Assembly (NCBI GenBank): GCA_045837725.1
Contig: JBEWZL010000293.1
Span: 1-33,616, forward strand
Reading direction: 5' to 3'
Length of the DNA stretch: 33,616 nt
Origin: Vermamoeba vermiformis
Taxonomy: Eukaryota
A model generated the notes under the pieces. The model saw nothing but the letters and a program-made list of their open reading frames with translations, did no database searches and was not told the origin of the DNA. Every line of letters starts with the position of its first letter. Positions within the stretch are counted from its first letter, which is position 1. Positions 4,552 through 30,408 of this stretch are shown in pieces. A program made the translations under genes and the position numbers.

Positions 4552-4566
4552 AATTGATAATAACGT

Positions 4567-6085
4567 ATGAATACAGATTGCAATTATCGCTGGATCCGAA
4601 AACAAGAAGCGAAGGAAAAAGACGTCACAACCGCATCATCGACCAACGAAGGAGCATCAAATTTTGATTTGAAAACTTTACCTAATGACGTCGTACACTA
4701 CATAATAGGGAATAATAATGAATGGATCCGAAACCAATTAGCGAAACAAAAAGAAACCACATCCGCGTTCAAGTTTGACTTGCAAGCCTTGCCTGAAGAC
4801 CTCATATACTACATAATACCTCATTTGCACTACGAACAAGTAATAATGCTATCCTTGACCAATAAGCGGTTCTACAAGTTGGTCAACGAAGGTCAACATG
4901 TTTGGAGACAAACCTCGAAGAGATATTTTACGAGTATATCGGTTACTACTGCAGCAGACTTCTATAAACAATATAGGTATGTTTATATTTATGAGTATAA
5001 TTGACGTTTAATTGATTCCGCTGGATGTAGATCCAAGTTTGAAACTGGAAAATTACTCCACCAGTATATCATTCCTATTGGAGGGAGTCCGGCATCGATA
5101 GAACTTAATGGAGACAAAATAATATTGACTCAACCATCGACGATAGAAATACTCGAAGCTCATTGCTTGGACAAGCCGCGGATGCAGAATCGTTTTCGCA
5201 AGAAATTTCGTGTCTTTCCCGTTGAAAGGGCAATGAACCGAACTGCTCGATTATATAATAATAAGATATTTACTCATGCGATGCATGGTGTTAATGAATA
5301 TTCAATATCGGTCATCAATGCAGAAACTGGATCTCTAGAAAGCGTGGCTCCATGTTCGCTTAATCTAATGGACGATTATTTATACTTTACTATTGATAAC
5401 AAGTCATTATTAGGAAGGGGTAAGTTTTTAATTAAGAACCGAAGCATTGCTAATTTTTTTTCAGGCTTTTCGATGGATCTTACAACACAACAAATCACCC
5501 AGATTGATTGGACAGCAGAACTATACAAATGGGTTATAAGTGACGATATATTATATGGATTGCAGAGAGTTAACTATTTGGAAGCCAATGAGTTGAAGCT
5601 ATTTGATCGAAGAACTTCCGAGAAAATTGTCGACGAATTGCCCTGCAATGACTTAAGATGTTTTAATGTCAAAGACAACGATATTTATACCGTTTCATCG
5701 CAAATTCTGCAATGGGACAAACGGTATTTATATCAACCGGTCAGAAAATCAATATCGATCCCTACTATCAATCAATATCTAATAAGAACGAGGTATGCAG
5801 TGCCTTTACTTATAGTAACATAACTAGTACTAATTTTTATATAGACTAAAGGTGAGCCAGCTATAGATTTGACAGCAATGAGAGTCATGGGACCAGATTT
5901 GGGATCTGACCGATTTTACTTGGGAGCTTGCCCAACTGCCTAGAGAAAAGTGCTATATAACTACTAATGGTATATTAGTCGCTTATTCAGTCGACGGAGC
6001 AATTAATGTTCGACAGAGCACGTGTACAGAGAGTCTGTCGAACACAATTTCAACTAGCCCAGAATTACGATGTAATGTTTTCTAG
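4567..6085 (+). CDS. F-box protein with a beta-rich (propeller-like) C-terminal part; last exon unresolved
   Basis: LQALPEDLIYYIIPHLHYEQVIMLSLTNKRFYKLV..VW is a clear F-box. Introns at ~4977-5030 and 5420-5464 keep the frame. After the intron at ~5793-5844 the frame stops at 5866, while another frame stays open to 6085. Confidence 0.7.
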
Positions 6086-7506: not shown

Positions 7507-10500
7507 ATGTCCCAAGGGTGTATTGACATCAAGAGTGGGCAGTTGTGCCCATTAGTTTCGCTGCACATCCGATCACTTTTTGTTGACCGCTTTGGTAAAT
7601 CCGAAAATTATATTATTAGTGTAGTTAATAATATAATTAACGTGATGTTTAATGGTAGGCTCAATTGAAGTCGTTCAAGAATACGAAAATTCTGGTGCAG
7701 CGCCGATAGAAGCAGTATTCACGTTTCCAAAAGACGATCAAGCAGCAATAACAGGATTCAAAGTGAAAATAAATGACAAAACATTGATTGGTCAAATCGA
7801 ATCGAGTGATGAAGAACAAGAGAAATACAGTGATGCGATTGCAGAAGGCAAAGGAGCATACTTACTCTCACAAAAACGCTCAGATATCGTCACACTTTAT
7901 ATTGGTAAGTTATAGTGAGCAATTAATTGCGGAAATTAAGATTCAGTGCTAAATCCATACAAATGATAATTTTTTAAAACTTTGACGGAAGCTAAAGTTA
8001 TTCTAATAATTCAATATCAGTAGTATTTATTAACGTTAATATTACGCACATTATTTCAAAATTATTAGTTGGCTCTGAACAAACATTGGATCGGGATCTT
8101 ACCATATTTGTACACAGGCAGCCTTTTACCAAAACAGAAGGTTCAAGTTGAGATCACCTGCGCTGCAGAAGCACAATGGGAAGGAGATTCGCTTCGAATT
8201 ACATTTCCAACGACCATTGCATCTCGTTACACGCCCGAGCAATTTCAACGAGACGAAGAACACCAGATCAACCCTGCTTATCATTCAAACGATAACACAT
8301 TGCCTTATGACTTCGAATTTGAGTCATTGGTGCAATTGACCCACGATAAGATCTCATTGTTTGAATCCCAACGCACAAATTTTCCGAGATCGACATCTCG
8401 CCAGATGGCACCGAAGTGAACGCGAGAGTGAAGGCAACGAAGGGAGATATCGTGTCTGATAGAGATATAGTGCTTATTGTCAATACGAAGGATAACTCGT
8501 TACAAAAAAGGCCAGTTATGATCGATGAAGTTGATGAGGACGGACACCACGCACTTTACCTCTCATTCATTCCAAAAATATTATGCAACGAAATTTCCAA
8601 GAACATAATGCACGAGATTGTATTTTTGATTGATAGGTAAGATTTCAGTTCTTATCTTAAGAAAGAAAAATTTTGATCTAATCTTGACTTCTCTTTAGGA
8701 GCGGAAGTATGGACGGTCAGCAAATGGTTTGTGCCAAAGAAGCTTTGCAACTATTTCTGCGATCATTGCCATCGTGTTATTTCGATATTGTAAGCTTCGG
8801 AAGCAATTACAGCCAATTGTTCGGAAATCCAACGCTCTATTCCAACGAGTCCTTATCAAAAGCCACGAAAGAAGTGAACAAATTTTCTGCCGATTTAGGT
8901 ACGTACATATCGCTAGGGTTAGGGTTTAGAATACTAAATTTGTTAGGTGGTACCGAGATCCTCGCGCCATTAAAGAAGATCTACTCGCGAACACCCACAA
9001 GAGGCAAACGAATAATATTCATATTAACAGGTATGTTATAATATTAAATAATAATAGTACGTTATTAATTAATACTGGCGTTCAGATGGCCAAGTCTCGA
9101 ACACGAGACAAGTGGTAGATCTAGTCAAACAGAATTCGGCTACAACTTCAGTATACGCATTGGGAATAGGTATCTCTGTTAGTAGAGACCTAGTCAATGG
9201 AGTATCGCAGGCTGGTAATGGCTACGCTGAGTATGCTACAGCGAACGAGCGATTACAACCTAAGATCATGTCATTTTTGACACTTTGCCACTTCATCATC
9301 GAATTTCTGCCGTTAGACATTTAAATCAGTCATTTGCCTAACACAATGATATTTCAATATTCTATATCATGATATCGGATTATTGAATTGGCTAAAGTAT
9401 TGACCATTCTGTACGATCAGTTGAAACGAGCGCTTGAGAATTTCTCGGTTCAGATTGATTGGCACTCAAACAAAATTGAACAATTTCCCGAACATATTTC
9501 TCCGATCACTGATGAAGACCCTTTGCACGTGATGGCGTTCGTTGATGACGCGTACCTTCAAAAGTAAGGATCATGACAAAAACACGCATTGTTTCTTAGT
9601 ACTGACGATATAACCTTATTACTAGGAATAAGAGCATAGAGATTAAAATAACGAGCAACAATACCCAAGAATATTCGATCGCGTTTGACTTATCACAAAT
9701 GAAGACAGTTCGGGGCAACAGAATTCATCAATTATTTGCGAAGAAGAAAACGGATGCGATGGCATCTGCGGACAAGAATCAAATTCGCAATCTGCAAATA
9801 TTGTGCAAGAAGTACAATGTACTGTCAAGTGTCACAAGTTTCGTTCTTGTGGAACCCCGAAAAGAAGCTGCAGCGACCAGTCCTGAACTTGTTAATGTTC
9901 CGCTTGCCAGGCCCAAGCCTCCACCAAGAACAGCGCAGACATTGGTGACGAACGGCACCGTGTCATTTGGCGGAAAGTTTTCGAACAGTTACAAAGCCAC
10001 TATTGGTGCAGATTTTGAAATGTGCAGAGTCTTAGTGAATAATCGCGAGATCAAAGTGCAACTTTGGGATCTTGGTAAGTTCGGTTCGTTCATGAAAGAA
10101 ATTTTCACTGAAACTAAAACCTTTTTTTTTCAGCTGGAGCAGAACGATTTGGGCACCATTTATCAAGGGCATTTGCTTCAGGTACTTCAGCAGTCTTATT
10201 AATGTACAGCGTGGCTTCTCGGTCTTCATTCGATAATGTGAAGACCTGGATGGACTCTTTGACTGAACAGATCGACTCCGATATTCCGGTGGTACTAGCA
10301 GGCAATAAGATTGATTGTGAAGGAGAAGTGTCAACGAAGGAAGGACAAGAATTGGCTGCTTCATTAGGCATTCCTTTCTTCGAAATTTCAGTGAAAGATA
10401 CAACGAACTTGGGTGACTTGGCCAAACTACTCTTCGTTAACATGATATTCAAACGACCTAACAGTGCTTTGCATAAAGGTAGGCCGGCACCTATTATATA

Positions 10501-11178
10501 TTATAGATACTAACGCACGTAACAGTTATTATTCTCGGAGACAGTGGTGTCGGAAAGACAAGTTTCAACAGACGAATGGTCGGATCCACAATTGACTTGG
10601 GCGAGTGCAATTTACCAATATCGACAATAAGCTCACAAAGTACCATTACGAATCAACCTCAAAACAATACTTCGGTACTTGGCAAAGTATGGCAAGGTTT
10701 CAAGAGCGTGGTTGGATACTTTAGCAAATCCGGATCTGGATCGGCAGTGCCAAACACTCCTCGTATCACGAGCCAACAGATACAACAATATAAGCCACAA
10801 GTTTCAAATCAAATAATAAGTGATATCATTTTGGCACAAAACGCCGAAGGCGCATTCATAATCGATGCAGCTCAATCTAATCAATTCTTTGGTGGCAATT
10901 ATACGGCTCAAATACCACAAGGAGCCACGCTGAATGTTTGGATGACCATCTTTTGCGTGACGTACTTGACGGTCAAGTGCGGTCAACACAAGTCAGAATG
11001 GGAACTCATCGTTCAAAAAGCTGAAAAATGGTTGAAGAGCGTTGGCGGCAATAAGCCTGAATGGAATCAACGTGCACGACAACTCTTTGCGGTACAATGT
11101 GATCCAGCCTGCTCACGATCGCTCGATATCCACGTTGAAGTAGCCAGGTATGAAATTCAAGACTGTGAGCTTACATAA
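7507..11178 (+). pseudogene. VIT-VWA (VWA5A-like) gene with an embedded circularly permuted Rab7-like GTPase, copy 1; disrupted as sequenced
   Basis: VIT (QEYEN..PIEAVFTFP), MIDAS DR|SGS, GGT and FILTDG, then GTPase motifs and the C-terminal helical domain. Relative to copy 2 it has a 1-nt frameshift at 8367-8369 and a 15-nt deletion removing a splice donor at ~9269. Confidence 0.65.
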
Positions 11179-11507
11179 AATTTAATTTGTTACATGTCAG
11201 CGGAATAATGTAGACTACTATCACGCACTTTGCTTCACGTCTGAAACAACTATTCTTAGTTCCCCAGCAATTTATGTGCGTAGATGGCGGGCTTTAAATA
11301 ATGGTGGCAAAAAGCATCATTAAGTCAGTGATCAGGTGTGTTTCAGCTCGGATCAGAGTTGTAAAATGGAGTTTACAATAGACGTTCAATAACTTAACTG
11401 GTTATTGCTCGGTTTAAGTAATGCCGTCTTGGTGAATCAGCAAATATATTTTTGTTTTGCGTGAGCGGTTGTAAGTTCTAACTTTACGTTAAGAAAGACC
11501 ACAGCTC

Positions 11508-14500
11508 ATGGGTAAGTAAAACCGCGGTTAAACTGATGCATAAACTAACCCAATTTGCAGAGAATAGAGCGACAGTGGATATTACGGCAAAGTACGAGGC
11601 ACTGACTGCTCATCTTCGAACTCTCCAATTTCACTTGCAGTCTCGGGGAATAGAGGCGCCAGAAGTTGACCGAGCTGTAGCAACACTAGCATATTATGAA
11701 AGACAAAATGCAACCGTCTTGTGTGGAGTGGCTGGAGCAGGCAAATCCACCTTGTTGAACATTTTACTGGGCTACAGCTACCTACCGACCACCAAGCCTG
11801 ATGAACCTGGACTCTCCGTCACTCCAATTGCTATAGAAGTCAGAAAAACGCGTTCTATAGGAGACAGAATCAAACTTGAAGTGCATTTGATTGACGACGT
11901 ATCTTGGAAAATCAAACGAGGAAGGAATATCTCTCCGGTAGAAGAGAAGAGCGAAGAAGTAACGGAAGCAAGTCAGAACTTTCTCAGCGCTGTTTTTGCC
12001 CAGCAGTCGGTTTTTGACTTCAATAACACATTCGACTGGAGTAACAACCTTGCTAACTTGAAAGAAGAGCAATTTGATGACCCGATTTCCGATTTCCTTC
12101 GTTCTACACGAGTGGTTACTGAATGGGATACAGTTCCTTCTGTTGTCAGCGACAAACTACAGAGCTATATTGATGATCGTCTGGCGCCATTGATCGTGCA
12201 GAAGATTGTCTTAATTGGAGCTTTCACCAACGGACACTTGCCAGAAGAAACAATTATATTTGATCTTCCTGGCAGCGGTGACATAAACGACGAAAAAGAA
12301 GACCAAAGACGAAAAATGCTAGTTAAAGCCCGGCGCGCCATTGTTGTGGTGCCACATAATACGAGATTTAAAAGCGTCAAAGATGCGGTCACCATGACTA
12401 ATGAGCTCTCCAACACCTACGTTGACAACACTGTCTCTCTTCAGGACCAGAGCTTGATAGTTTTCAATCGGGCATGGAGTAGAAAGAAGGGCCAGACCTT
12501 AGAATCAGCTTGGCAGGAATACCAGCAAAAAATCAGTGGTACGCAGCAATCAATATTGGCCAACTGTGCGTTTTTGGATGATAATGAAGTTGACCACACT
12601 GAATTCAACAAATTCTTTGACACGCAACTGGCTGTTATCAAGAGTTTTATTGCACAAATCAATCTCGAAAAAGAGAAAGCCTTCACACAAATTCTGGACC
12701 AATTGCGAATTGCTGCTTGGCGTCTTGGATCACAGAAAGCGCCATCACTTCCAGATATTCCAGAACAATTTAAGCAATTTCATGTGGGTCTATCCAAGCT
12801 AAAACATGCTTTAGTTGAGCAAGTATCCTGTGCACCAGCGAACGCAAGCTTGTTCAAAGAGACATTCGACAAGATTGTTCGCTGCTTCAGTCATAATTGG
12901 AAGTCAAGTGATGCCTTTGCTAGGTATCGTGGAGTGTATGGAGGACGTAAGTAAATTGACTTTTTTTTTCATCAATTATTAACAACACATCCGTAGGCTC
13001 AGGCAGTGCTGATGTACCACAAGACTTTGCTGATTTACTATTGGCAAGTCAGCAAATTGATTTTGGCTTATTGAATGAGCATCTGAGCAAAGTTTGGCAA
13101 ACCAATGCAACCAAGCAGTTCAACCAGTCTCTGAACAAAGCTATAAGGAATGCAATTCACTCCGTTATTTTGAACAATTATTCTGGATTTTTGTATGGCC
13201 CTTATTATGGCACTTCAAACTACATCAATGTCTTCATGGAAAGATTTTGGAGAGACTGGCCTACAATTAAGGAATTGGTCATTGCAGCAATTAAATTCCA
13301 GCTTAGTGAATTCAATACTCTGGTAGAGCAACGTGTCCTACTATTGACAACAATTCACCAGAATTCTCAACTAACGGTGGATCAAATGAAATCAGAAGTC
13401 TCTGCAACCCTTCCATTACCAAATCATCAAGCCATCCGTTGGATTATGAAATCTGTCTATCAACTATATAATATATGGATTCAATATCACCCTGGATACC
13501 AGTTTGCAGACTTGACAGCTGTAAAGCCAACTCAACTCTGGGAAAAGGAAGACAATGTTGAATACCTTAAACCAACCTTTACTTCATTTCTGCTGTTTGG
13601 CCAAGCTCTCCCATGGTTACCTCGATTTTCAACTCCAACAGTTATTGTCATACGCTACCTTGGTTTATCAAAGGAGCATGTAGAGGTATTGAAAAGATGG
13701 TTAGATCCACAGCTCAAACAATCACGAAAGTTGGAAATAACAGTAGATGTAACTGGAAATGACATTGATCAAGAATCATTGAACGAATTGAACTCCAAGT
13801 ATTCAGCATTGAAAGTTGAGTTCGTAGATTCCATCAAGTACACCGCAAGCTCTTTGGTTCCTGATGCTCCTAGCTGCCGAATTGGAATTGTCATTGGCAA
13901 TGCAAATTACAATGCTCCAATTGCTAGTTGTGCTAAGAATCAGCAGTCAGTACGCCAATTCCTGCAAGGCTTGAAGTTCACTATCTTGGAAACAAACGAA
14001 ATCAAAACACGTAATGAATGGAACTCGCTAATATTGCAACTGGAGGATCAGTTGAAAGAACAAACGTCACGAGCACTGATTGTATTCTACTACAGTGGCC
14101 ATGGGTGCATTGTCGAAGGAAAGCACTGCATAGTGTCCACAAGCAATGATATTATTCCGTTGACGAAGCTTTATCACATTTGCCAAACCAAAGATACCAC
14201 CAACATATTCATAATGGATTGCTGTCAAGCAGGCTTTAGTTCGGACCAAGTCGATGCTGCCATCGTTAAAGAAGCAAAAGACAAGTCCTTCCCTGCTCGC
14301 TTGCTTCGATCTTTTGCCAGCTGCCCGTTGAACTACGCCTATGCACCACTTGCAAACGTCAATACAGTATACACGCAGATCAATCTCAAGCATCTAGAGC
14401 GCGCTCATGCAACTAGACAATCGGTTGTAGAAGCATTGAGAGCTGCTGCCGATGAGTACGATCAATTGACAGATGTTCAGAAAGGTCAACCGTACATCTC

Positions 14501-14534
14501 CGTATCAGGAGCCTTCCCCTTTTTTAGCCTTTAA
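11508..14534 (+). CDS. Dynamin-superfamily (NUGGC/SLIP-GC-like) GTPase fused to a caspase-like C14 peptidase, ~975 aa, 3 exons
   Basis: Exons 11508-11511, 11561-12946 and 12997-14534 splice in frame. GTPase motifs: G1 GVAGAGKSTLLNILLG..LPT, G2 VT, G3 DLPG, G4-like FNR, plus HNWKS..A..RYRG. Peptidase motifs: IVIGNANY, FYYSGHG, FIMDCC, QPY. Confidence 0.85.
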
Positions 14535-21327: not shown

Positions 21328-22510
21328 TTATTTGCGCAAAAGAAGGGACAAAAAGTCGCTGGCGAAAGCGTTGGTGCAGGTCAACTTTGGATTCACCTTG
21401 TTGGGAGGAGCCTGAACAACAGCAACGTTAGTATTGCAGTGTAATTACTTAAGCGGATATTATCTTACGTAGATGGAAGGAGAGAAGGGACCAGAAACGG
21501 TATTGAAGAAGTTGAGTTGGAGATCTCCCAAGTACTCAATACCCTCAACGTCAATTTGGACAATAGTGGTGGTCTTAGTAGAGACCCAAATAGTGACAGG
21601 GGCAGTGTAGCCGAAGACAGCAGCTATTAACGAGAGTTAATAAGATGCTTTTTTTTTTTGATATTTCAAAACTCGTGTCAGATTGCAAGATCCGTGTCGT
21701 TTTCTTACCTTCGAACTCCCAGCCAGTGCAAGGTTTACCAGCGACGACCTTGTTGCCGACGAATGAAGCATTGGAAGGCAATTGGAAGGGGAAGAAGATC
21801 AAGAGGGAGGCAGGAACAGAGCCTAAAAGGTACGTGTTCGCATTAGTTCACGAAACAAAAACACAAAATACCGAACATTGGTAGGTTCACTGGAACTTTC
21901 CAAAATATCACAAATCGATCATATACTAATGCCTTAAAGCTTAATATGACTTACCAAAGTTCCAGCACAAAGGACCTTCGTACATGTAACCTTGAAACGA
22001 GCAAGATTAATTAAAGATTTGGCAAGTTTCTCATATTGGATTATGGCTCATACCAGTAGTAGTGCCTTGGCTAGCATCAGGAGAAGCAACGAGGTTGGTA
22101 TGGAAAGACAAAGGAACATCTAAATGTCAAGAATGTCAGTCTTAGCTCGATCGGATTTCGATCAGATTCTGCAACTTACACTCTTCACCACCGACTTCCA
22201 AGAAAGAGCCAGCGTTGACGTAATCCAAAGCAAAGAATCCCGAGACAAAGACGGGAGAATCAGTTGGGGAAACGTAGCCAGGCAAAACAACTGTCAAATG
22301 GTGAAATTAATTTCTGGATCTGAATCATCGCTTGTAATCTTGCCATACATTAAACTGCACGTTGCACAATTTAAGGACAATTTTATTATTATTATTTTTA
22401 AACTTACGCGTGAAGTTGGTGTAGAACTGTTGAGGAAGCTTTGGCGGGGTTTGGCAGAAGGCAGTGCCAACGACGCAGAGAATAGCAGCGATAACGATAA
22501 TCGATCTCAT
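21328..22510 (-). CDS. Ependymin-related (EPDR-like) secreted protein, copy 2, 7 exons
   Basis: MRSIIVIAAILCVVGTAFCQTPPKLPQQFYTNFT...; same exons and motifs as copy 1. Confidence 0.75.
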
Positions 22511-23182
22511 GTTTTAAGATTGTGGTTCAGTGCTTATCAATAAACAAATAAAATCAAGAATAAAATCTGTTTTTGTGCTTGCCAAACTCTTCGCAGGAAC
22601 TTTCTTATGGACCGGTGATGTCCACAAAAGTCCCTTTTCGGATTAATATTACGACCCTTATGCAAGGACTGAATCATGATTCAAGCATCTCGATAACCGG
22701 AATATACCTAAATGTAAAAGGGTGATAAATTCAGTCTTACCACCGAAAAAATTTATTATAATTATTATTATTATAATCATAAATATGGCAGTAATTAGTA
22801 AGTAAAAGCGAGTTCGAACGGAACAGATCGAGTACGTTGGGTGAGCTCACCATCAGACGAAGGCAGGATTAACAATACTCGTATGGTTTTGAAGCAAACA
22901 TGTTCATACGGGTATACCCTTACAGAAGTCTATTCAAATTCAACTGCATCCAGATGATTTAAACCACAGCTTATGACTTCGCGACTAGGCTTCGCTCAAA
23001 TACTTGAAGCTATTACACCGACGTACTGCTTAAGAAGCACCGCTCTATGACACATTTGTTACTTCTGGTGCTTCAGATCGACTGCTGGCCACCGAAATTT
23101 CAAATACACGTCACTTCTGGTCTATTCTATTGCCTTAAATAATCGCTAATTGAGTCTACTACTGATAATTTGAACATCAACG

Positions 23183-26100
23183 ATGGCACAACAAGGGTTT
23201 ATCGACATTAAGACTGGACAGTTATGTCCTTTAGTTTCTCTTCAAATCCGATCCGCCTTCATCGATCGTTTTGGTAATATTCTTGATAATATACAGCTGT
23301 ATAAATAACTTAGTAATTTTTTTTCCTTAGGTTCTATTGAGGTTGTCCAAGAATACGAAAACACAGGCAAAAATCCGATAGAAGCAGTATTCACGTTTCC
23401 AAAAGACGATCAAGCAGCAGTAACAGGATTCAAAGTGAAAATAAATGACAAAACGCTGATTGGTCAAATTGAAGCCAGCGATGAAGCACAAGAGAAATAC
23501 AGTGATGCAATTGCTGAAGGCAAAGGTGCATATTTGCTCTCTCAAAAGCGATCAGATATCGTCACTCTTTATATTGGTAAGTTTTATCGTGGTAAATTAC
23601 GCAAATCTTGTCATCTTTTGGATGCTGTGCTACATCTGGTCCCGAAAATATTTTCTAAATCTTACACGAACTTTAAAATAAATTAACTTAGCTTAAATTG
23701 GGTATAACAATTTATTCATGATTTTTCTCGACATTTATTCGATTTTTTGGTCTCGTCTAAGAAAAATCGGATTCGGATCTGACTTAACTTTTATTTAGGC
23801 AGCCTGTTACCACAACAAAAGGTTCAAGTCGAAATAACATGCGTTACAGAAGCTCAATGGGAAGGCAAAGCACTTAGAATAACATTCCCAACGACCATTG
23901 CACCTCGTTACACGCCTCAACAATTTCAGCAAGACGAAGATCACCAGATCAACCCTGTTTATCATTCAAACGATAACCAATTGCCATACGACTTCATATT
24001 CGAATCGTCAGTGCAATTAACGCATGATACAATTTCATCATTTGAATCTCCAACGCATAAATTTTCGGAGATCGACATCTCAGCGGATCGAACCGAAGTC
24101 AGCGCGAAAGTGAAGGCAAAGAAAGGAGATATTGTGGCTGATAGAGATATCGTTCTAATAGTTCATGCCAATAAGAGATCGTTGCAAAAAATGCCGATTA
24201 TTATTGATGAAGTAGATGAAGCCGGACACCACGCACTTTATCTCTCGTTCATTCCAAAAATAATTTGCACCAAAATTTCGAAGAAAAAAATGCACGAAAT
24301 TATATTTGTTATCGACAGGTAAGAAATTCAACGGTAATTATCATTTCAAAATTTTAAGATCCATATTTAAATTTTTATAGGAGCGGAAGTATGGACGGTC
24401 AGCAAATGAATTGTGCGAAAGAAGCTTTGCAATTATTTCTTCGTTCATTGCCCGCATGTTTCTTCGACATTGTCAGCTTTGGATCGAACTTTCAACAAAT
24501 GTTTGGATCTCCTGCTCAATATTCTAACGAGTCTTTGGCGCAAGCTACTGAACAAGTGAAGAAATTTCAAGCTGATTTGGGTACGCTGCAAATATTCATT
24601 TTTATATTTACTAAACGTGAGAATAAGGTGGCACGGAGCTTTTGCGGCCTTTAAGCCAGATCTACCAACAATCACCAAAAGGTGGCAAAAGAATCATATT
24701 CGTGTTAACAGGTACGTTATATGTTAAATCACATATATTAGTATTAATTAATTCTTTGCTTTAGATGGTCAGATCTCGAACACGCGTCAAGTGGTGGATC
24801 TCGTCAAAAAGAATTCGGCGACAACTTCAGTATTCACGCTGGGAATAGGCGATTCTGTTAGTAGAGACCTAGTTAATGGCATGGCGCAGGCGGGTAATGG
24901 TTACGCTGAATATGCAACGGGCAACGAGCGACTTCAACCTAAGATCATTCGACAGGTAAAAATGTCATTTATGACACTTTGACACTTTGACACGTGTCAA
25001 ATTGAAGTTTATTAAGTCACGCTATACAACCTTAGTACTACATTTAAATCGATGATAGTGTATTTTGAATACTATACTTAGCTATTTTATGAAATGACAG
25101 TTGAGGCGTGCCCTTGAAAACTTCTCCGTTGAGACTGATTGGCATTCACGAACGGTAGAACAGTTCCCAGAACATATTTCTCCGATCTCCGATGAAGATC
25201 CGTTGCACGTGATGGCATTTGTTGACGATAGGTACCTTCGAAGGTATAAATTTTATCCTTCTAAACGAGTTCCAGGAATTAATTCTTTTTTATTTTAGCA
25301 ACAAGAAGATTACGATCAAAATCAGTTGCGATGACAAAAATGAATATTCGATCCCGTTTGATCTCGCTCAAATGAAGACAGTCCGCGGCAACAAAATTCA
25401 CCAATTATTTGCTAAGAAAAAGGCTGATGCAATGAGTTCTGACGTTGCAGCCAACAATAAGAATCAAATTCGCAATCTGCAAATATTGTGCAAAAAATAC
25501 ACCGTGCTGTCAAAAATCACAAGTTTCATTCTAGTCGAACAACGAAAAATTGCTACAACGACAACACCAGAGCTCGTAAATATTCCGCTTGCCAGACCTA
25601 AGCCTGCGCCGTTGACAGCTCAAACAATAGTGACCAATGGCACGGTGTCACTTGGCGGAAAATTCTCGATGAATTACAAAGCGACAATTGGTGCAGATTT
25701 TGCCACGTGCAGAATAGTATTGGCTGATAGAGAAGTGAGAGTGCAATTATGGGATCCATGTAAGTATCATTCGTTCATGAACCAAATTTTCACTGAACTG
25801 ACTTCGAAATTTTTTCACAGCCGGATCTGAACGATTTGGTGGACCGTCGAGAATATTTTATAGTGGAACGTCTGCAGCTGTTATTATGTACGATGTGCAT
25901 TCTCGAACTTCATTTGACAACATGAAAGAATGGACGGAGAAATTGACCGTGCAAGCTGGATCCGACATTCCGATGGCTTTAGTGGGCAATAAGATTGATA
26001 CAGATGGTCAAAAAGTTTCAGCGGGAGAAGGCCAAAAATTAGCAGATTCATTGGGCATTGCTTTCTTCGAAATTTCCGTGAAAGATACCACGAACATGGG

Positions 26101-26842
26101 TGACTTGGTGAAACTGCTCTTCGCTACTATGATATTGAACGATCCGAATAATACTGTGCTTAAAGGTAGGCCGACACCTATAATAATAGTTAATAGATCT
26201 AACGGGGTTTTAGTTATTATCCTTGGAGATTCGGGCGTCGGAAAGACCAGTTTCAACACGAGACTTGCCGGATCCACCATCGACTTGAGCGACATTGATA
26301 CGCGAAACTTAATAGGCTCGCAAAGTACCTCTCAAAATGCCTCTCAAGCCCAGGCTACTAATGACTCGTTACTTGGAAAAGTATGGCAAGGCTTCAAAAG
26401 CGTGGTTGGTTATTTCAGCGGATCCAGATCTACAAATGACGCGTCAACTGCGACTACAAATACGAATAATACAAGCAATAATGTTAACACTATGCCCGTG
26501 CAAAAGTCACAAAATGTCATGGTGCAGTTGCCCCCGAAGCAAAAGAAGGTCGATTTGAATGCCATTATTTTGGCGCAAAACGCTGAAGGCGCTTGGAACA
26601 TCACCGCAGCCGAATCAGTTCAGCTTTTTGGATCGGATCTGACAGCTCAAGCACCGCAAGGCGTCAAACAAGATATTTGGATGACGATAGTTTGTATCGC
26701 TTATTTGGCGGTCAAATGTAGCCAGCACAAGTCAGAATGGGAATTGATCGTTCAAAAGGCTGAAAATTGGTTGAAAACTGTTGGTGCAAACAAACCTGAA
26801 TGGAATCAACGCGCAAGACAGTTGATACAACAAAGTGTTTGA
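23183..26842 (+). CDS. VIT-VWA (VWA5A-like) protein with an embedded circularly permuted Rab7-like GTPase, copy 2, apparently intact
   Basis: MAQQGFIDIKTGQLCPL start, VIT domain, MIDAS DR|SGS, GGTEL and FVLTDG. Then [44 protein letters not shown] and the C-terminal EWELIVQKAENWL domain. Confidence 0.88.
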
Positions 26843-26928
26843 AAGTAAACGTGCAGTACGTTGATTTTCCCAAATAAGGCAATTTTATCGACCACTTCGC
26901 CACGTGACAATTTTCTCGGTCGTTGATC

Positions 26929-27011
26929 GCATCGGTGCCCGAGTTGGTCTAAGGGGTTGGATTAAGGCTCCAATATCTTCGGATGCAAGGGTTCGAATCC
27001 CTTCCGATGCA
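26929..27011 (+). tRNA. trnL-AAG: tRNA-Leu, anticodon AAG, identical second copy
   Basis: Same sequence as 365-447, followed by a T-run. Confidence 0.96.
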
Positions 27012-27506: not shown

Positions 27507-28681
27507 ATGAGATCACTCATTATTATCGCTGCTGTTCTCTGCGTCGTTGGCACTGCCTTCTGCCAAACACCGCCAAAGCTTCCTCAACAGTTCTACACCA
27601 ACTTCACGCGTAAGTATAAAAATATACTAATAAAATTGTTTAAAATTAATAATAGCTAAATTATCCTTAATTTTACACACGATAATTTGCGTTGTTAAAC
27701 GATCGGATGATTAAGATCGAGAGTATTTATTTTTACGAATTTTGTACCAGTTCGTTTTCCTAGCTATTCTTCACCGACTGATTCTCCCGTCTATATCGCG
27801 GGCTTCTTTGCTTTGGATTATGTTAACGGTGGCGCTTTCTTGGAAGTCGGTGGCGAGGATTGTAAGTGCGGATCTGAAGCTGATCGCGCTGCAGACTAAC
27901 GTTCTCGCCTATTTAGATATTCCTTTGTCTTTCCACACCAATCTCGTTGCTTCTCCGGATGCCAGCCAAGGCACTACTACTGGTATGAGCCTTAATTTAA
28001 CTTACGAAACTTAATTAATCCTTGCTCGATTCAAGGTTACATGTACGAAGGTCCTTTGTGCTGGAACTTTGGTAAGTCATATTAAATCATATTATATGAT
28101 CTATTTGTTATACATTGAAATTCTGCCAATGTTCGTAATTTTGCGATTCATGAACTAATGCGAACACGTACCTTTTAGGCTCTGTCCCTGTCTCCATCTC
28201 GAGTTTCTTCCCCTTTGAATTGCCCTCCAATGCTTCATTCGTAGGCAACAAGGTCGTCGGGGGTCAGCCTTGCTCTGGCTGGGAATTGGAAGGTAAGAAA
28301 ACGACGCGGATCTGCCCGTGTGACACGAGTTTTGAAATCGTCAAAAAAAAGCATCCAATCATCTTATTAATTCTTGTAAAAGCTGCTGCTATCTTCGGCT
28401 ACGTTACCCCCATCACCGTTTGGATCTCTACTAAGACCTCTAATATTGTTCAAATTGACATTAAGGGTATCGATTACGTGGGCGAACTCCAAATCAATTT
28501 CTCCAACACCGTTTCTGGTCCCTTCTCTCCTTCCATCTATGTAAGATAATATTCGCCTACATTATGATATTGCATTGCTAACGCTGCCATAATTTAGGCT
28601 CCTCCCAACAAGGTGAATCCACAGTTGACCTGCACCAACGCTTTTGTCAGCGACTTTTTGTCTCTTCTTTTGCGCAAATAA
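27507..28681 (+). CDS. Ependymin-related (EPDR-like) secreted protein, copy 3, 7 exons
   Basis: MRSLIIIAAVLCVVGTAFCQTPPKLPQQFYTNFT...LTCTNAFVSDFLSLLLRK-stop; conserved splice sites. Confidence 0.75.
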
Positions 28682-28927: not shown

Positions 28928-29250
28928 GGATTCGATGTCGATTCCTTTTAAAATTAATTTGAAGAAGATTCAAGAGAGGAAAGTGACCTTGCGTTAATTG
29001 TGTTGACGAAAAAATATGAAGGGAGCACAATTTGAGCAGCAGCCACGGTACAACATTATTTATAGTCTTGGCTCCTTTCGATTGTTTTCCTATAATAATT
29101 ATCCTAGTAATTATTTAGAAGTACTTCGCTTAGGTTAACGTTAATTAATACGAAGGGAAAGTTCCTGCGAAGAGTAGGCAACAACCACAAAAATCTGATT
29201 TTATTCTTGATTTTATTTGTTTGTTAATACGCTGAACCACAAGCTTAAAC

Positions 29251-30408
29251 ATGAGATCGATTATCGTTATCGCTGCTATTCTCTGCGTCGTTGGCACTGC
29301 CTTCTGCCAAACCCCGCCAACGCTTCCTCAACAGTTCTACACCAACTACACGCGTAAGCTAAGCAATAATAATCATAACAAATTGTGTTCAATATGGCCA
29401 CGCGCAATACGCTTTCTAAACGATTAGAGATTATTTCCAGACCGAGTATTAATTTTACGAATTTTGTACCAGTTGTTTTGCCTACCTACGTTTCACCGAC
29501 TGCTTCTCCCGTCTATATCTCGGGCTTCTTTGCTTTGGATTACATCAATGCTGGCTCGTTCTTGGAAGTTGGTGGTGAAGAGTGTAAGTTGCAGATCTAA
29601 ATCTGATCGAGTTGCCGACCAACGTTCTTGCCACTTTAGATGTTCCTTTGTCGTTCCACACCACTTTCGTTGCTTCTCCTGATGCTAGCCAAGGCACCAT
29701 CACTGGTACGAGCTATATCTACCTAATGAAACTTTAATTAATCCTTGCTCGGCTTAAGGCTACATGTACGAAGGTCCTTTGTGCTGGAACTGGGGTAGGT
29801 TATATTAAACCATCGTATACGATTAATTTGTGATATATTGGAAATTCCGGCGAACCAGCCCGATGCCATTAATTTAGCGGTTTTTGCGGTTCATGAACTA
29901 ATGCGAACACGTACCTTTTAGGCTCTGTTCCTGCCTCCCTTTTGACATTTTTCCCCTTCCAATTGCCTGTTAATTCTTCATTCGTCGGCAGCAAGGTCGT
30001 CGCAGGTCAACCTTGCACTGGATGGGCGTTCGAAGGTAAGAAAGTGACGCAGATCTGACAGTCCGACGCGAATGTTGAAATGTAGAAAAGCCCTAATAAT
30101 TCTTGTAAATAGCTGCTGTCTTCGGATACACTGCCCCTGTCACTATTTGGGTCTCTACTAAGACCACCAATATCGTCCAAATTGACGTCAAGGCTGTTGA
30201 GTACTTGGGCGATCTCCAACTCAACTTCTTCAACACCGTTTCTGGTCCCTTCTCTCCTTCCATCTACGTAAGAAAATATTCGCCTACATTTTTATATTGA
30301 AATACTTACAATGCTGTTATTTAGGCTCCTCCCAACAAGGTGAATCCACAGTTGACCTGCACCACCAACTTCTTCGGCGGCTTTTTGTCCCTTCTTTTGC
30401 GCAAATAA
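29251..30408 (+). CDS. Ependymin-related (EPDR-like) secreted protein, copy 4, 7 exons
   Basis: MRSIIVIAAILCVVGTAFCQTPPTLPQQFYTNYT...FLSLLLRK-stop; conserved splice sites. Confidence 0.75.

Follow-up and report, generated by a model that had tools for sequence, protein, structure and literature searches.

Candidate circularly permuted Rab-family G domain with its P-loop last inside a VIT-VWA protein of Vermamoeba vermiformis

We present here an analysis of gene 1, which lies on contig JBEWZL010000293.1 (GenBank assembly GCA_045837725.1) of Vermamoeba vermiformis within a stretch of 33,616 nucleotides (positions 1 to 33,616, forward strand), referred to as the window. Gene 1 encodes a predicted VIT-VWA protein of 965 amino acids (aa). 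Within this protein lies a Rab-like G domain with its motifs in the order G2-G3-G4-G5-G1, so that the P-loop comes last. An original prediction, made from the sequence alone, had described this domain as a circularly permuted Rab7-like GTPase inserted into a VIT-VWA protein. The features of gene 1 are as follows.

23183-26842, +, gene 1, 10-exon model, VIT-VWA (VWA5A-like) protein
23183-23273, 23331-23576, 23799-24318, 24381-24580, 24628-24711, 24765-24955, 25101-25231, 25299-25759, 25821-26165 and 26214-26842, +, exons 1 to 10
23331-23576, +, exon 2, VIT domain (Pfam PF08487, E 5.2e-22, 78.6 bits, cut-off 26.5)
24381-24955, +, exons 4-6, VWA domain (Pfam PF13768 VWA_3, 33.9 bits in exon 4 and 23.9 bits in exon 6)
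25660-25759, +, new N-terminal end of the G domain: KFSMNY, switch I/G2 (Thr codon at 25684-25686), beta2, beta3 and the start of G3, WDP (Pfam Ras profile 22-54)
25760-25820, +, intron 8, 61 nt, phase 1, within G3 (WDP/SGSERF), with a joint in public run X1
25821-26165, +, exon 9: remainder of G3 (SGSERF), alpha2 to alpha5, old C-terminus (Pfam Ras profile 57-157)
25988-25999, +, G4, NKID
26075-26083, +, G5, SVK
26166-26213, +, intron 9, 48 nt, positioned exactly at the seam, where the old C-terminus (past helix 5) meets the old N-terminus (beta1)
26214-26287, +, beta1, P-loop (G1), helix 1 and exit motif STIDL (second Rab profile match, hmm 9-35)
26225-26251, +, P-loop, GDSGVGKTS
26273-26287, +, exit motif, STIDL
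26288-26842, +, low-complexity linker, then a C-terminal VWA5A-type helical domain (BLASTP to P0001) and the stop codon TGA; metagenome open reading frames P0002, P0004 and P0007, assigned to this region, share 47-62% identity with gene 1

Gene 1 and its product

All nine introns are bounded by GT..AG and are 47-222 nt long, with a GC content of 28% versus 43% in the exons. The VIT match and the exon 4 VWA_3 match both exceed their cut-offs and stand in the order VIT, then VWA. The VWA domain has the residues of a metal ion-dependent adhesion site (MIDAS), DRSGS..GGT..TDG, as read off the translation. No signal peptide was seen by eye. The protein ends in RQLIQQSV; the G domain is internal, and there is no C-terminal prenylation cysteine motif. 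VIT, VWA and a C-terminal region, without a signal peptide, are likewise found in VWA5A/BCSC-1, Dictyostelium Vwa1 and PARP4. BLASTP aligned residues 1-569 with P0001, a 1310-aa VWA5A-like protein of Anaeramoeba flamelloides named VWA5A at its source (E 4e-57), and residues 869-949 with residues 1210-1293 of the same protein (E 3e-8), identifying the C-terminal region as homologous to that of a VWA5A-like protein. In P0001 an N-terminal, canonical Rab that is not permuted (Ras profile 1-161) precedes VIT and VWA. Unless it is a gene-model fusion, it is a second, different combination of Rab with VIT-VWA.

Motif order in the G domain

The Ras profile (Pfam PF00071) matches gene 1 in two parts, and the P-loop follows both. 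Profile positions 22-54 match the end of exon 8 (E 2.6e-4, 21.0 bits, slightly below the cut-off of 21.6), and positions 57-157 match from the start of exon 9 (E 4.2e-25). In Pfam the P-loop itself draws a weak RsgA_GTPase match only (aa 128-171, 22.5 bits versus a cut-off of 30). A Rab hidden Markov model (HMM), built from 40 single-domain matches, aligns with the exon 9-10 frame first over hmm 64-177 (E 2e-36) and then over hmm 9-35 (independent E 1.1e-5). The motifs G1 through G5 are thus all present, in an order other than the canonical G1-G2-G3-G4-G5. The Walker A pattern [GA]xxxxGK[ST] occurs a single time in the three + frames of 22800-26900, and therefore no P-loop precedes switch I. 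With one Walker A motif and one G3-G5 set, gene 1 does not contain two complete G domains. The cut falls at hmm ~30/31, the junction of helix 1 and switch I, and the seam between helix 5 and beta1 is about 8 residues long (NDPNNTVL). The catalytic Gln that follows DxxG in other Rabs is absent; gene 1 reads WDPSGSERF, with Ser at that position. The order of the motifs, the lack of an upstream P-loop, the cut between helix 1 and switch I with joining of the old termini, and the location inside a VIT-VWA protein had all been predicted, and each was recovered with the Pfam and HMM matches, the Walker A scan or the 10-exon model.

Splicing

Splice joints were sought in public run X1, for which the RNA label is a guess and whose contigs resemble the window at 90-100% (at least 99% for 20 of the 43). 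X1 contigs contain GT..AG joints at introns 3, 4, 5, 6, 8 and 9 of gene 1. Intron 7 is represented only by other cuts, with skips of 59 and 55 nt versus the modeled 67. Intron 8 is joined at 25759>25821 (GT..AG, depth 19.1, 2 contigs), and the seam intron at 26163>26212 (cut +2, GT..AG, depth 20.6, 1 contig, shorter side 53 nt). None of these joints is present in DNA run X4, which spans the region. The predicted splice of the P-loop exon to the G2-G5 exons was therefore found in X1 and is absent from X4. Two raw-read RNA runs, X21 and X22, gave 0 matching reads and have no bearing on expression either way.

Because intron 9 is in frame and contains no stop, the sequence alone could not decide the seam splice, which leaves room for an artefact of the assembly or gene model that combines unrelated exons or a mis-join. 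The spliced X1 contigs speak against such an artefact. So does the recurrence of the same order in gene 2 (a second copy in the window), in two metagenome contigs of other assemblies and in contiguous Mastigella and Trichosphaerium transcriptome open reading frames, all described below. We consider an artefact extremely unlikely.

Second copy in the window and close metagenome genes

The window contains a paralog of gene 1.

7507-11178, +, gene 2, same architecture (VIT, VWA, SVK, seam intron, STIDL)
10479-10525, +, gene 2 seam intron, 47 nt, with TACTAAC

The gene 2 seam intron is not a multiple of three, and its removal is needed to stay in frame. Over exons 8-10, genes 1 and 2 share 66% amino acid identity. 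Their ratio of nonsynonymous to synonymous substitution (Ka/Ks) is 0.27 for the G domain (175 codons) and 0.24 for its beta1-P-loop-helix 1 piece (30 codons), at a synonymous divergence (dS) of ~0.9, which is near saturation. These ratios point to purifying selection on the G domain between the window copies, the beta1-P-loop-helix 1 piece included.

A locus scan with P0007 as the query yielded three metagenome contigs, L001 to L003; the same scan with the gene 1 exon 9-10 protein gave 208 pattern matches, of which 0 were confirmed. L003 holds a complete gene with the same order, 51-79% identical to gene 1 by segment, and with a stop codon within the seam intron. L001 and L002 represent a further type, with canonical WDT/AGQERF and with the P-loop exon in another frame; in L001 the frame changes at the seam intron. 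The G3 intron and the seam intron occur at the same places in all four genes (gene 1, gene 2, L003 and L001). The 3′ end of L002 (2937-3196) repeats the start of the L003 gene (369-778), and for this reason copies with and without the canonical Gln appear to be tandem neighbors in that metagenome organism.

Distant members of the family

The exon 9-10 protein was scanned with HMMER against 1.84 billion representatives, giving 17,194 matches; the results described here come from the best 150. Most of the strong matches among these have 2-4 Rab domains in tandem (Rotaria, Anaeramoeba, Tulasnella and Bolivina) and align collinearly over the seam, the alignment running from one domain's G3 to the P-loop of the domain that follows. 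Five more proteins among the 150 share the gene 1 order, with no G3 after the P-loop and, where the upstream part is seen, no P-loop before switch I.

P0112, Trichosphaerium sp. transcriptome fragment, carrying the last part of a VWA domain
P0064, Pelomyxa schiedti KAH3765890.1, named PARP4, with PARP_reg, PARP, VIT and VWA, then the permuted domain
P0125, Pelomyxa schiedti KAH3743917.1, with a further P-loop GTPase-like region downstream
P0131, Mastigella eilhardi transcriptome, with a further P-loop GTPase-like region downstream
P0059, metagenome fragment starting at beta4, upstream part unseen, with a VWA5A-type tail

In all five, a first Rab HMM match starting at hmm ~31-33 (85 in the fragment P0059) ends at hmm 155-175 and is followed by a match to hmm ~5-32. 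The break point common to all members is hmm ~30/31. A VIT-VWA host is not confirmed for P0125 and P0131: VIT scores 25 bits, below the cut-off, in P0125 only, and a VWA Pfam match is found in neither. After helix 1, most of the circularly permuted (cp) members carry the exit motif S-x-[VI]-D-[LVI] (genes 1 and 2, P0112, P0125, P0131, P0059 and P0004), with departures in P0064 (SLSVD), L003 (TINL) and L001 (SIYL). The motif is absent from the tandem Rabs at the corresponding place. Canonical WDTAGQER is kept in L001, P0112, P0131 and P0064. Residues 749-803 of P0131, about 60 residues upstream of its permuted Rab domain, match a synaptobrevin (R-SNARE) motif at 45.2 bits, a hint that this host protein may be connected with membrane traffic.

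The named relatives of the permuted domain are amoebozoans. Word-index protein searches found no additional permuted member; the first gave 1 match (a canonical Rab-VIT-VWA fusion of Anaeramoeba), the second gave 7 matches, none of them permuted with VIT or VWA, and in the third 0 of 59 had a VIT or VWA Pfam family. The ESM Atlas yielded no more than leads, in the form of generic small-GTPase clusters at 0.80. The range of the family is under-sampled.

Predicted fold

Three stand-ins for the spliced gene 1 domain were folded: a homolog, an intron-retaining frame and a two-chain assembly of the gene 1 pieces. AlphaFold2 was run on P0112 with a 30-row alignment that included tandem Rabs. The predicted local distance difference test (pLDDT) score was 86-98 over residues ~251-420 and 72 for residues 241-250, and the elements followed in the order b2 b3 a2 b4 a3 b5 a4 b6 a5 b1 a1. 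With Foldseek, the best matches of this model were Rab1, Rab5 and Rab8, with target-normalized template modeling (TM) scores of 0.70-0.78 and root-mean-square deviations of 1.5-2.8 over 130-149 columns, values that are about the ceiling for a sequential aligner on a permuted chain. For exon 9 of gene 1 with the retained intron and the start of exon 10, AlphaFold2 gave a pLDDT of 84.2 and a predicted TM (pTM) score of 0.81. Beta1 and helix 1 reached a pLDDT of ~90-93 in this model, the intron-coded residues 114-121 fell below 50, and the model matched Sec4, Ypt51, KRAS and Rab8 over ~100-110 columns.

In the two-chain prediction, the exon 8 piece of gene 1 was paired with the exon 9-10 piece in the presence of GTP and Mg, and scored 0.78 versus 0.01 for the best of 3 controls. 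Of 78 solved complexes, 51 attain this mark, as do 2 of 108 mismatched pairs; these counts are only rough when small molecules are present. Contact agreement between runs was at least 86%, and the partner pLDDT was at least 80. Beta1 (130-131) contacts beta3 (36-38), as in Ras-like folds, and the LAGSTIDL segment after helix 1 runs along beta2 (24-29). Because the two pieces are halves of one Rab-like domain, this result expresses likeness to the solved Rab fold and is not an independent fact. In the models the G domain is predicted to close, P-loop included, with beta1 beside beta3; a model that leaves the fold open, which would have refuted the original prediction, was not obtained.

These models bear on the reading of the domain as the remnant of a tandem Rab, in which the first domain is dead for want of a P-loop, while the P-loop downstream is a stump left by a second, decayed domain and does not complete the first. 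Tandem Rabs are the commonest strong matches among the best 150 and align over the seam, and P0125 and P0131 do have the further GTPase-like region downstream. That region has its own P-loop, however, and the P-loop at the seam is thus not part of it. In the predictions, beta1 and helix 1 form part of the first domain's packing at high confidence, and beta1 is placed on beta3. The seam linker is short, the break point is identical in all members, and the supposed stump is under purifying selection. A tandem remnant is very unlikely on this evidence.

Rab affinity and origin

The G2/beta2/beta3 piece was compared with PDB sequences, and the 13 best matches were all Rab7 (35.4-31.7 bits), with Rab6 next (26.4). 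With the G3-G5 piece, all 60 PDB matches listed were Rab, Ypt, Sec4 or EhRabX3. By these comparisons the closest relatives of the domain are Rabs and not Ras, Rho, Arf or Ran proteins. Unlike canonical Rabs, it is permuted, is internal to a 965-aa protein, lacks prenylation cysteines and has its Gln replaced.

For phylogeny, the P-loop piece was moved to the front and the domains were aligned with 189 canonical domains from the matches. An IQ-TREE mixture model was applied to 104 rows and 169 columns, with 8 cp rows. On this tree the cp rows need 2 changes, and 0 of 500 shuffles were as low. The smallest clade with all 8 also contains P0039 (Arcella intermedia, YKATIGADF) and P0138. When the cp rows were held as one clade, the tree was 45.6 log-likelihood units better than the free quick search, with a P value of 0.92 in the approximately unbiased (AU) test. 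A single origin of the cp members is compatible with and favored by these results, although it is not proven.

The most likely origin would be a duplication giving a tandem Rab-Rab (Rab7-like) protein that was then trimmed at both ends. This is suggested because tandem Rabs exist and align over the seam, because both new ends keep pieces of the connector between helix 1 and switch I (GGKFS... and ...AGSTIDL), and because an intron marks the seam. Tandem multi-Rabs (EhRabX3, PDB 5c1t, and those of Rotaria, Anaeramoeba and Tulasnella) contain G2-G5, a linker and G1 collinearly. They are plausible models for the duplication intermediate, and they keep complete domains on both sides, whereas gene 1 does not.

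Comparison with known permuted GTPases

Two other permuted orders provide the comparison. In cpRAS the motifs run G3-G4-G5-G1-G2, and the chain is opened between beta2 and beta3 (Elias & Novotny 2008, PMC2430557). The cpRAS domains are of RAS type with a "TIE" G2 motif and are located N-terminal to a zinc finger and a Sec23/24-trunk VWA, or within an A2M-like protein (PMC2430557). YlqF/YawG (YRG) proteins have the order G4-G5-G1-G2-G3, a permuted P-loop GTPase fold that still closes (PMC2430557). According to a 2006 survey, the YlqF-type order was the only one structurally allowed in permuted GTPases, a view that cpRAS overturned (told in PMC2430557).

The gene 1 domain resembles cpRAS as a eukaryotic Ras-superfamily permutation with helix 5 joined to beta1, hosts that are large and VWA bearing, and a scattered distribution that includes Amoebozoa. 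Membership in the published cpRAS family might be proposed, given that both are permuted Ras-superfamily domains in VWA-bearing proteins. The defining motif order differs, however. Gene 1 has G2, beta2 and beta3 before G3 and is cut between helix 1 and switch I; its G2 is the Rab-type TIGADF, for which Rab7 is the best match, rather than TIE; and its domain follows VIT and VWA_3 on the C-terminal side. PF04811 gave no match at E up to 0.1 on the gene 1 exon pieces scanned. The probability of cpRAS membership is, in our judgment, vanishingly small. The YlqF/YawG GTPases, an ancient and universal group that serves ribosome assembly, are not Rab-like, and gene 1 differs from them in having G2 and G3 before G4. 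No affinity to them was seen in gene 1 past the weak RsgA_GTPase match on the P-loop. The permutation had been proposed as separate from both groups, and the order, the cut, the Rab-type G2 and the host architecture all agree with that proposal. From its sequence, we rate the gene 1 domain as a third break point among permuted GTPases and the first in a Rab.

No description of the G2-G3-G4-G5-G1 order was found in the full-text literature, a scope outside which most subscription journals and supplements fall. In print, "cpRab" denotes chloroplast Rab or bacterial CprAB. CPRas is the only permuted type mentioned in the available part of a 2026 small-GTPase survey, and the word GTPase is absent from the main text of the Dictyostelium Vwa1 paper on VIT-VWA proteins (PMC10539598).

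Proposed mechanism

The best explanation as a whole, which we hold to be likely, is that gene 1 is genuine, is transcribed and encodes a cytoplasmic VWA5A-like protein with a permuted Rab domain in its linker that acts as an in-line switch, and that this domain belongs to a small family comprising gene 1 and gene 2, two metagenome genes and amoebozoan proteins including a PARP4-like one. The permuted Rab-family G domain is inserted in the linker ahead of the C-terminal domain. The chain enters just before switch I, passes along beta2-beta3, G3, G4, G5 and helix 5, goes over the seam into beta1, the P-loop and helix 1, and exits via S-x-[VI]-D-[LVI]. The new ends lie side by side in this layout, fitting a mid-chain insertion in a host. 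GTP and Mg would probably be bound, since G1, the G2 Thr, DxxG, NKxD and the S-x-K of G5 are kept. Because the host chain enters at switch I and exits beside it after helix 1, the domain may form an in-line nucleotide switch, with switch I tethered directly to the VIT-VWA body. Hydrolysis would be slow, or a GTPase-activating protein (GAP) would supply the Gln in trans, because Ser, Ala or Asp takes the place of the intrinsic catalytic Gln in this lineage. TBC RabGAPs supply a Gln in trans.

A wider reading is possible, though we regard it as tentative and rather doubtful. Under it, the P-loop GTPase fold would have been permuted independently a third time, here for the first time in Rabs, with one origin by Rab7-like tandem duplication in an amoebozoan-type lineage and a subsequent spread among VWA5A-like and PARP4 (vault-type) VIT-vWA scaffolds. 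The domain would work as an in-line mechanical switch, physically tethered to the VIT-VWA body by switch I. The strand after helix 1 (S-x-V/I-D-L) would occupy the beta2 edge in cis, and the GTP/GDP state would gate how the VWA MIDAS face and the C-terminal domain are arranged or reached by partners. The beta2 edge is used for partner binding in other Ras-like proteins.

Several observations weigh against the in-line switch, its Rab7-like origin or the evidence for them. The seam joint is backed by 1 contig of a single run whose RNA nature is guessed, and the X1 contigs may come from a related strain. The P-loop piece alone gave no significant match to PDB sequences: ABC-type ATPases came first (E 0.099), and Rabs followed from 0.21. 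The piece is too short for significance, and it is context, conservation and the fold predictions that identify it as the P-loop. Structure models cannot demonstrate nucleotide binding. The label Rab7-like, as originally proposed, holds for the G2/beta2/beta3 piece and not for the G3-G5 core, for which Rab5, Rab1 and Sec4 are about as good: Rab5-type, Rab1, Rab3, Sec4 and Ypt7 sequences lie within a few bits of each other, and the best are of Rab5 and Rab1 types. The trees were built without a named Rab reference set, and "Rab7-derived" rests on the G2 piece and one neighbor of unnamed family. The AU test fails to reject monophyly of the cp rows, and in a FastTree analysis (LG+gamma, 197 rows) these rows were ungrouped, with a common ancestor under midpoint rooting that spans 176 tips. 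At the catalytic Gln position of G3, gene 1 has Ser, gene 2 has Ala and L003 has Asp, the last in a G3 shortened by one residue, and P0125 reads WEPGG. G5 is SVK versus the usual SAK. Relative to gene 1, gene 2 lacks 1 nt in exon 3 (near 8366) and 13 nt near 9268, the latter loss taking the intron 6 donor with it; gene 2 may be a recent pseudogene, or these may be assembly errors.

Parts of the family may accordingly be pseudo-GTPases. Extended to the whole lineage, this reading holds that the fold is kept, that nucleotide binding or cycling is lost and that the domain serves as a structural or interaction module only. It draws on the loss of the catalytic Gln in 3 of the 4 genes of the window lineage (with the shortened G3 accompanying Asp), on the Ala-to-Val change in G5 and on the apparently disabled gene 2. 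GxxxxGK[ST], the G2 Thr, DxxG and NKxD are nevertheless intact in genes 1 and 2, L003 and L001, the domain Ka/Ks is 0.24-0.27, and the Gln itself persists in the four members with canonical WDTAGQER. Loss of the Gln alone leaves nucleotide binding intact in known Ras-like proteins. A pseudo-GTPase lineage is unlikely in our estimate, and a nucleotide-binding in-line switch is preferred.

A break between helix 1 and switch I would indicate that the Ras-like fold tolerates opening right beside its nucleotide sensor. The domain would provide a natural design in which switch I is coupled covalently to a host, useful for understanding and engineering nucleotide-gated domain insertions. It would also suggest a testable regulatory input for the little-understood intracellular VIT-VWA proteins (VWA5A/BCSC-1, PARP4 and Dictyostelium Vwa1) in some protists. 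Together with the tandem-Rab proteins, it may offer a clean case of the duplication-then-trimming route to permutation, with an intron at the seam.

Other features of the window

The following features lie elsewhere in the window.

4564-5004, +, F-box-like domain (29.4 bits), upstream of gene 2
11482-14534, +, two long open frames directly past gene 2, with a Dynamin_N-type GTPase (38.3 bits), then a Peptidase_C14 caspase (54.3 bits)
365-447 and 26929-27011, +, two tRNA-Leu(AAG) genes, the second 87 nt past the gene 1 stop codon
~22020-22510, -, 27507-28550, +, and 29242-30100, +, copies of a local family flanking gene 1

Dictyostelium Vwa1, a VIT-VWA protein, is reported to act with an F-box protein (PMC10539598), and by this analogy the presence of the F-box-like gene near gene 2 may not be accidental. 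The two frames at 11482-14534 may form one fusion gene of a dynamin-like GTPase and a (meta)caspase. The family that flanks gene 1 has at least 3 copies. Its members are intron bearing and encode a small protein with the start MRS(I/L)I(V/I)IAA(I/V)LCVVGTAFCQTPP(K/T)LPQQFYTN, which has the look of a signal peptide.

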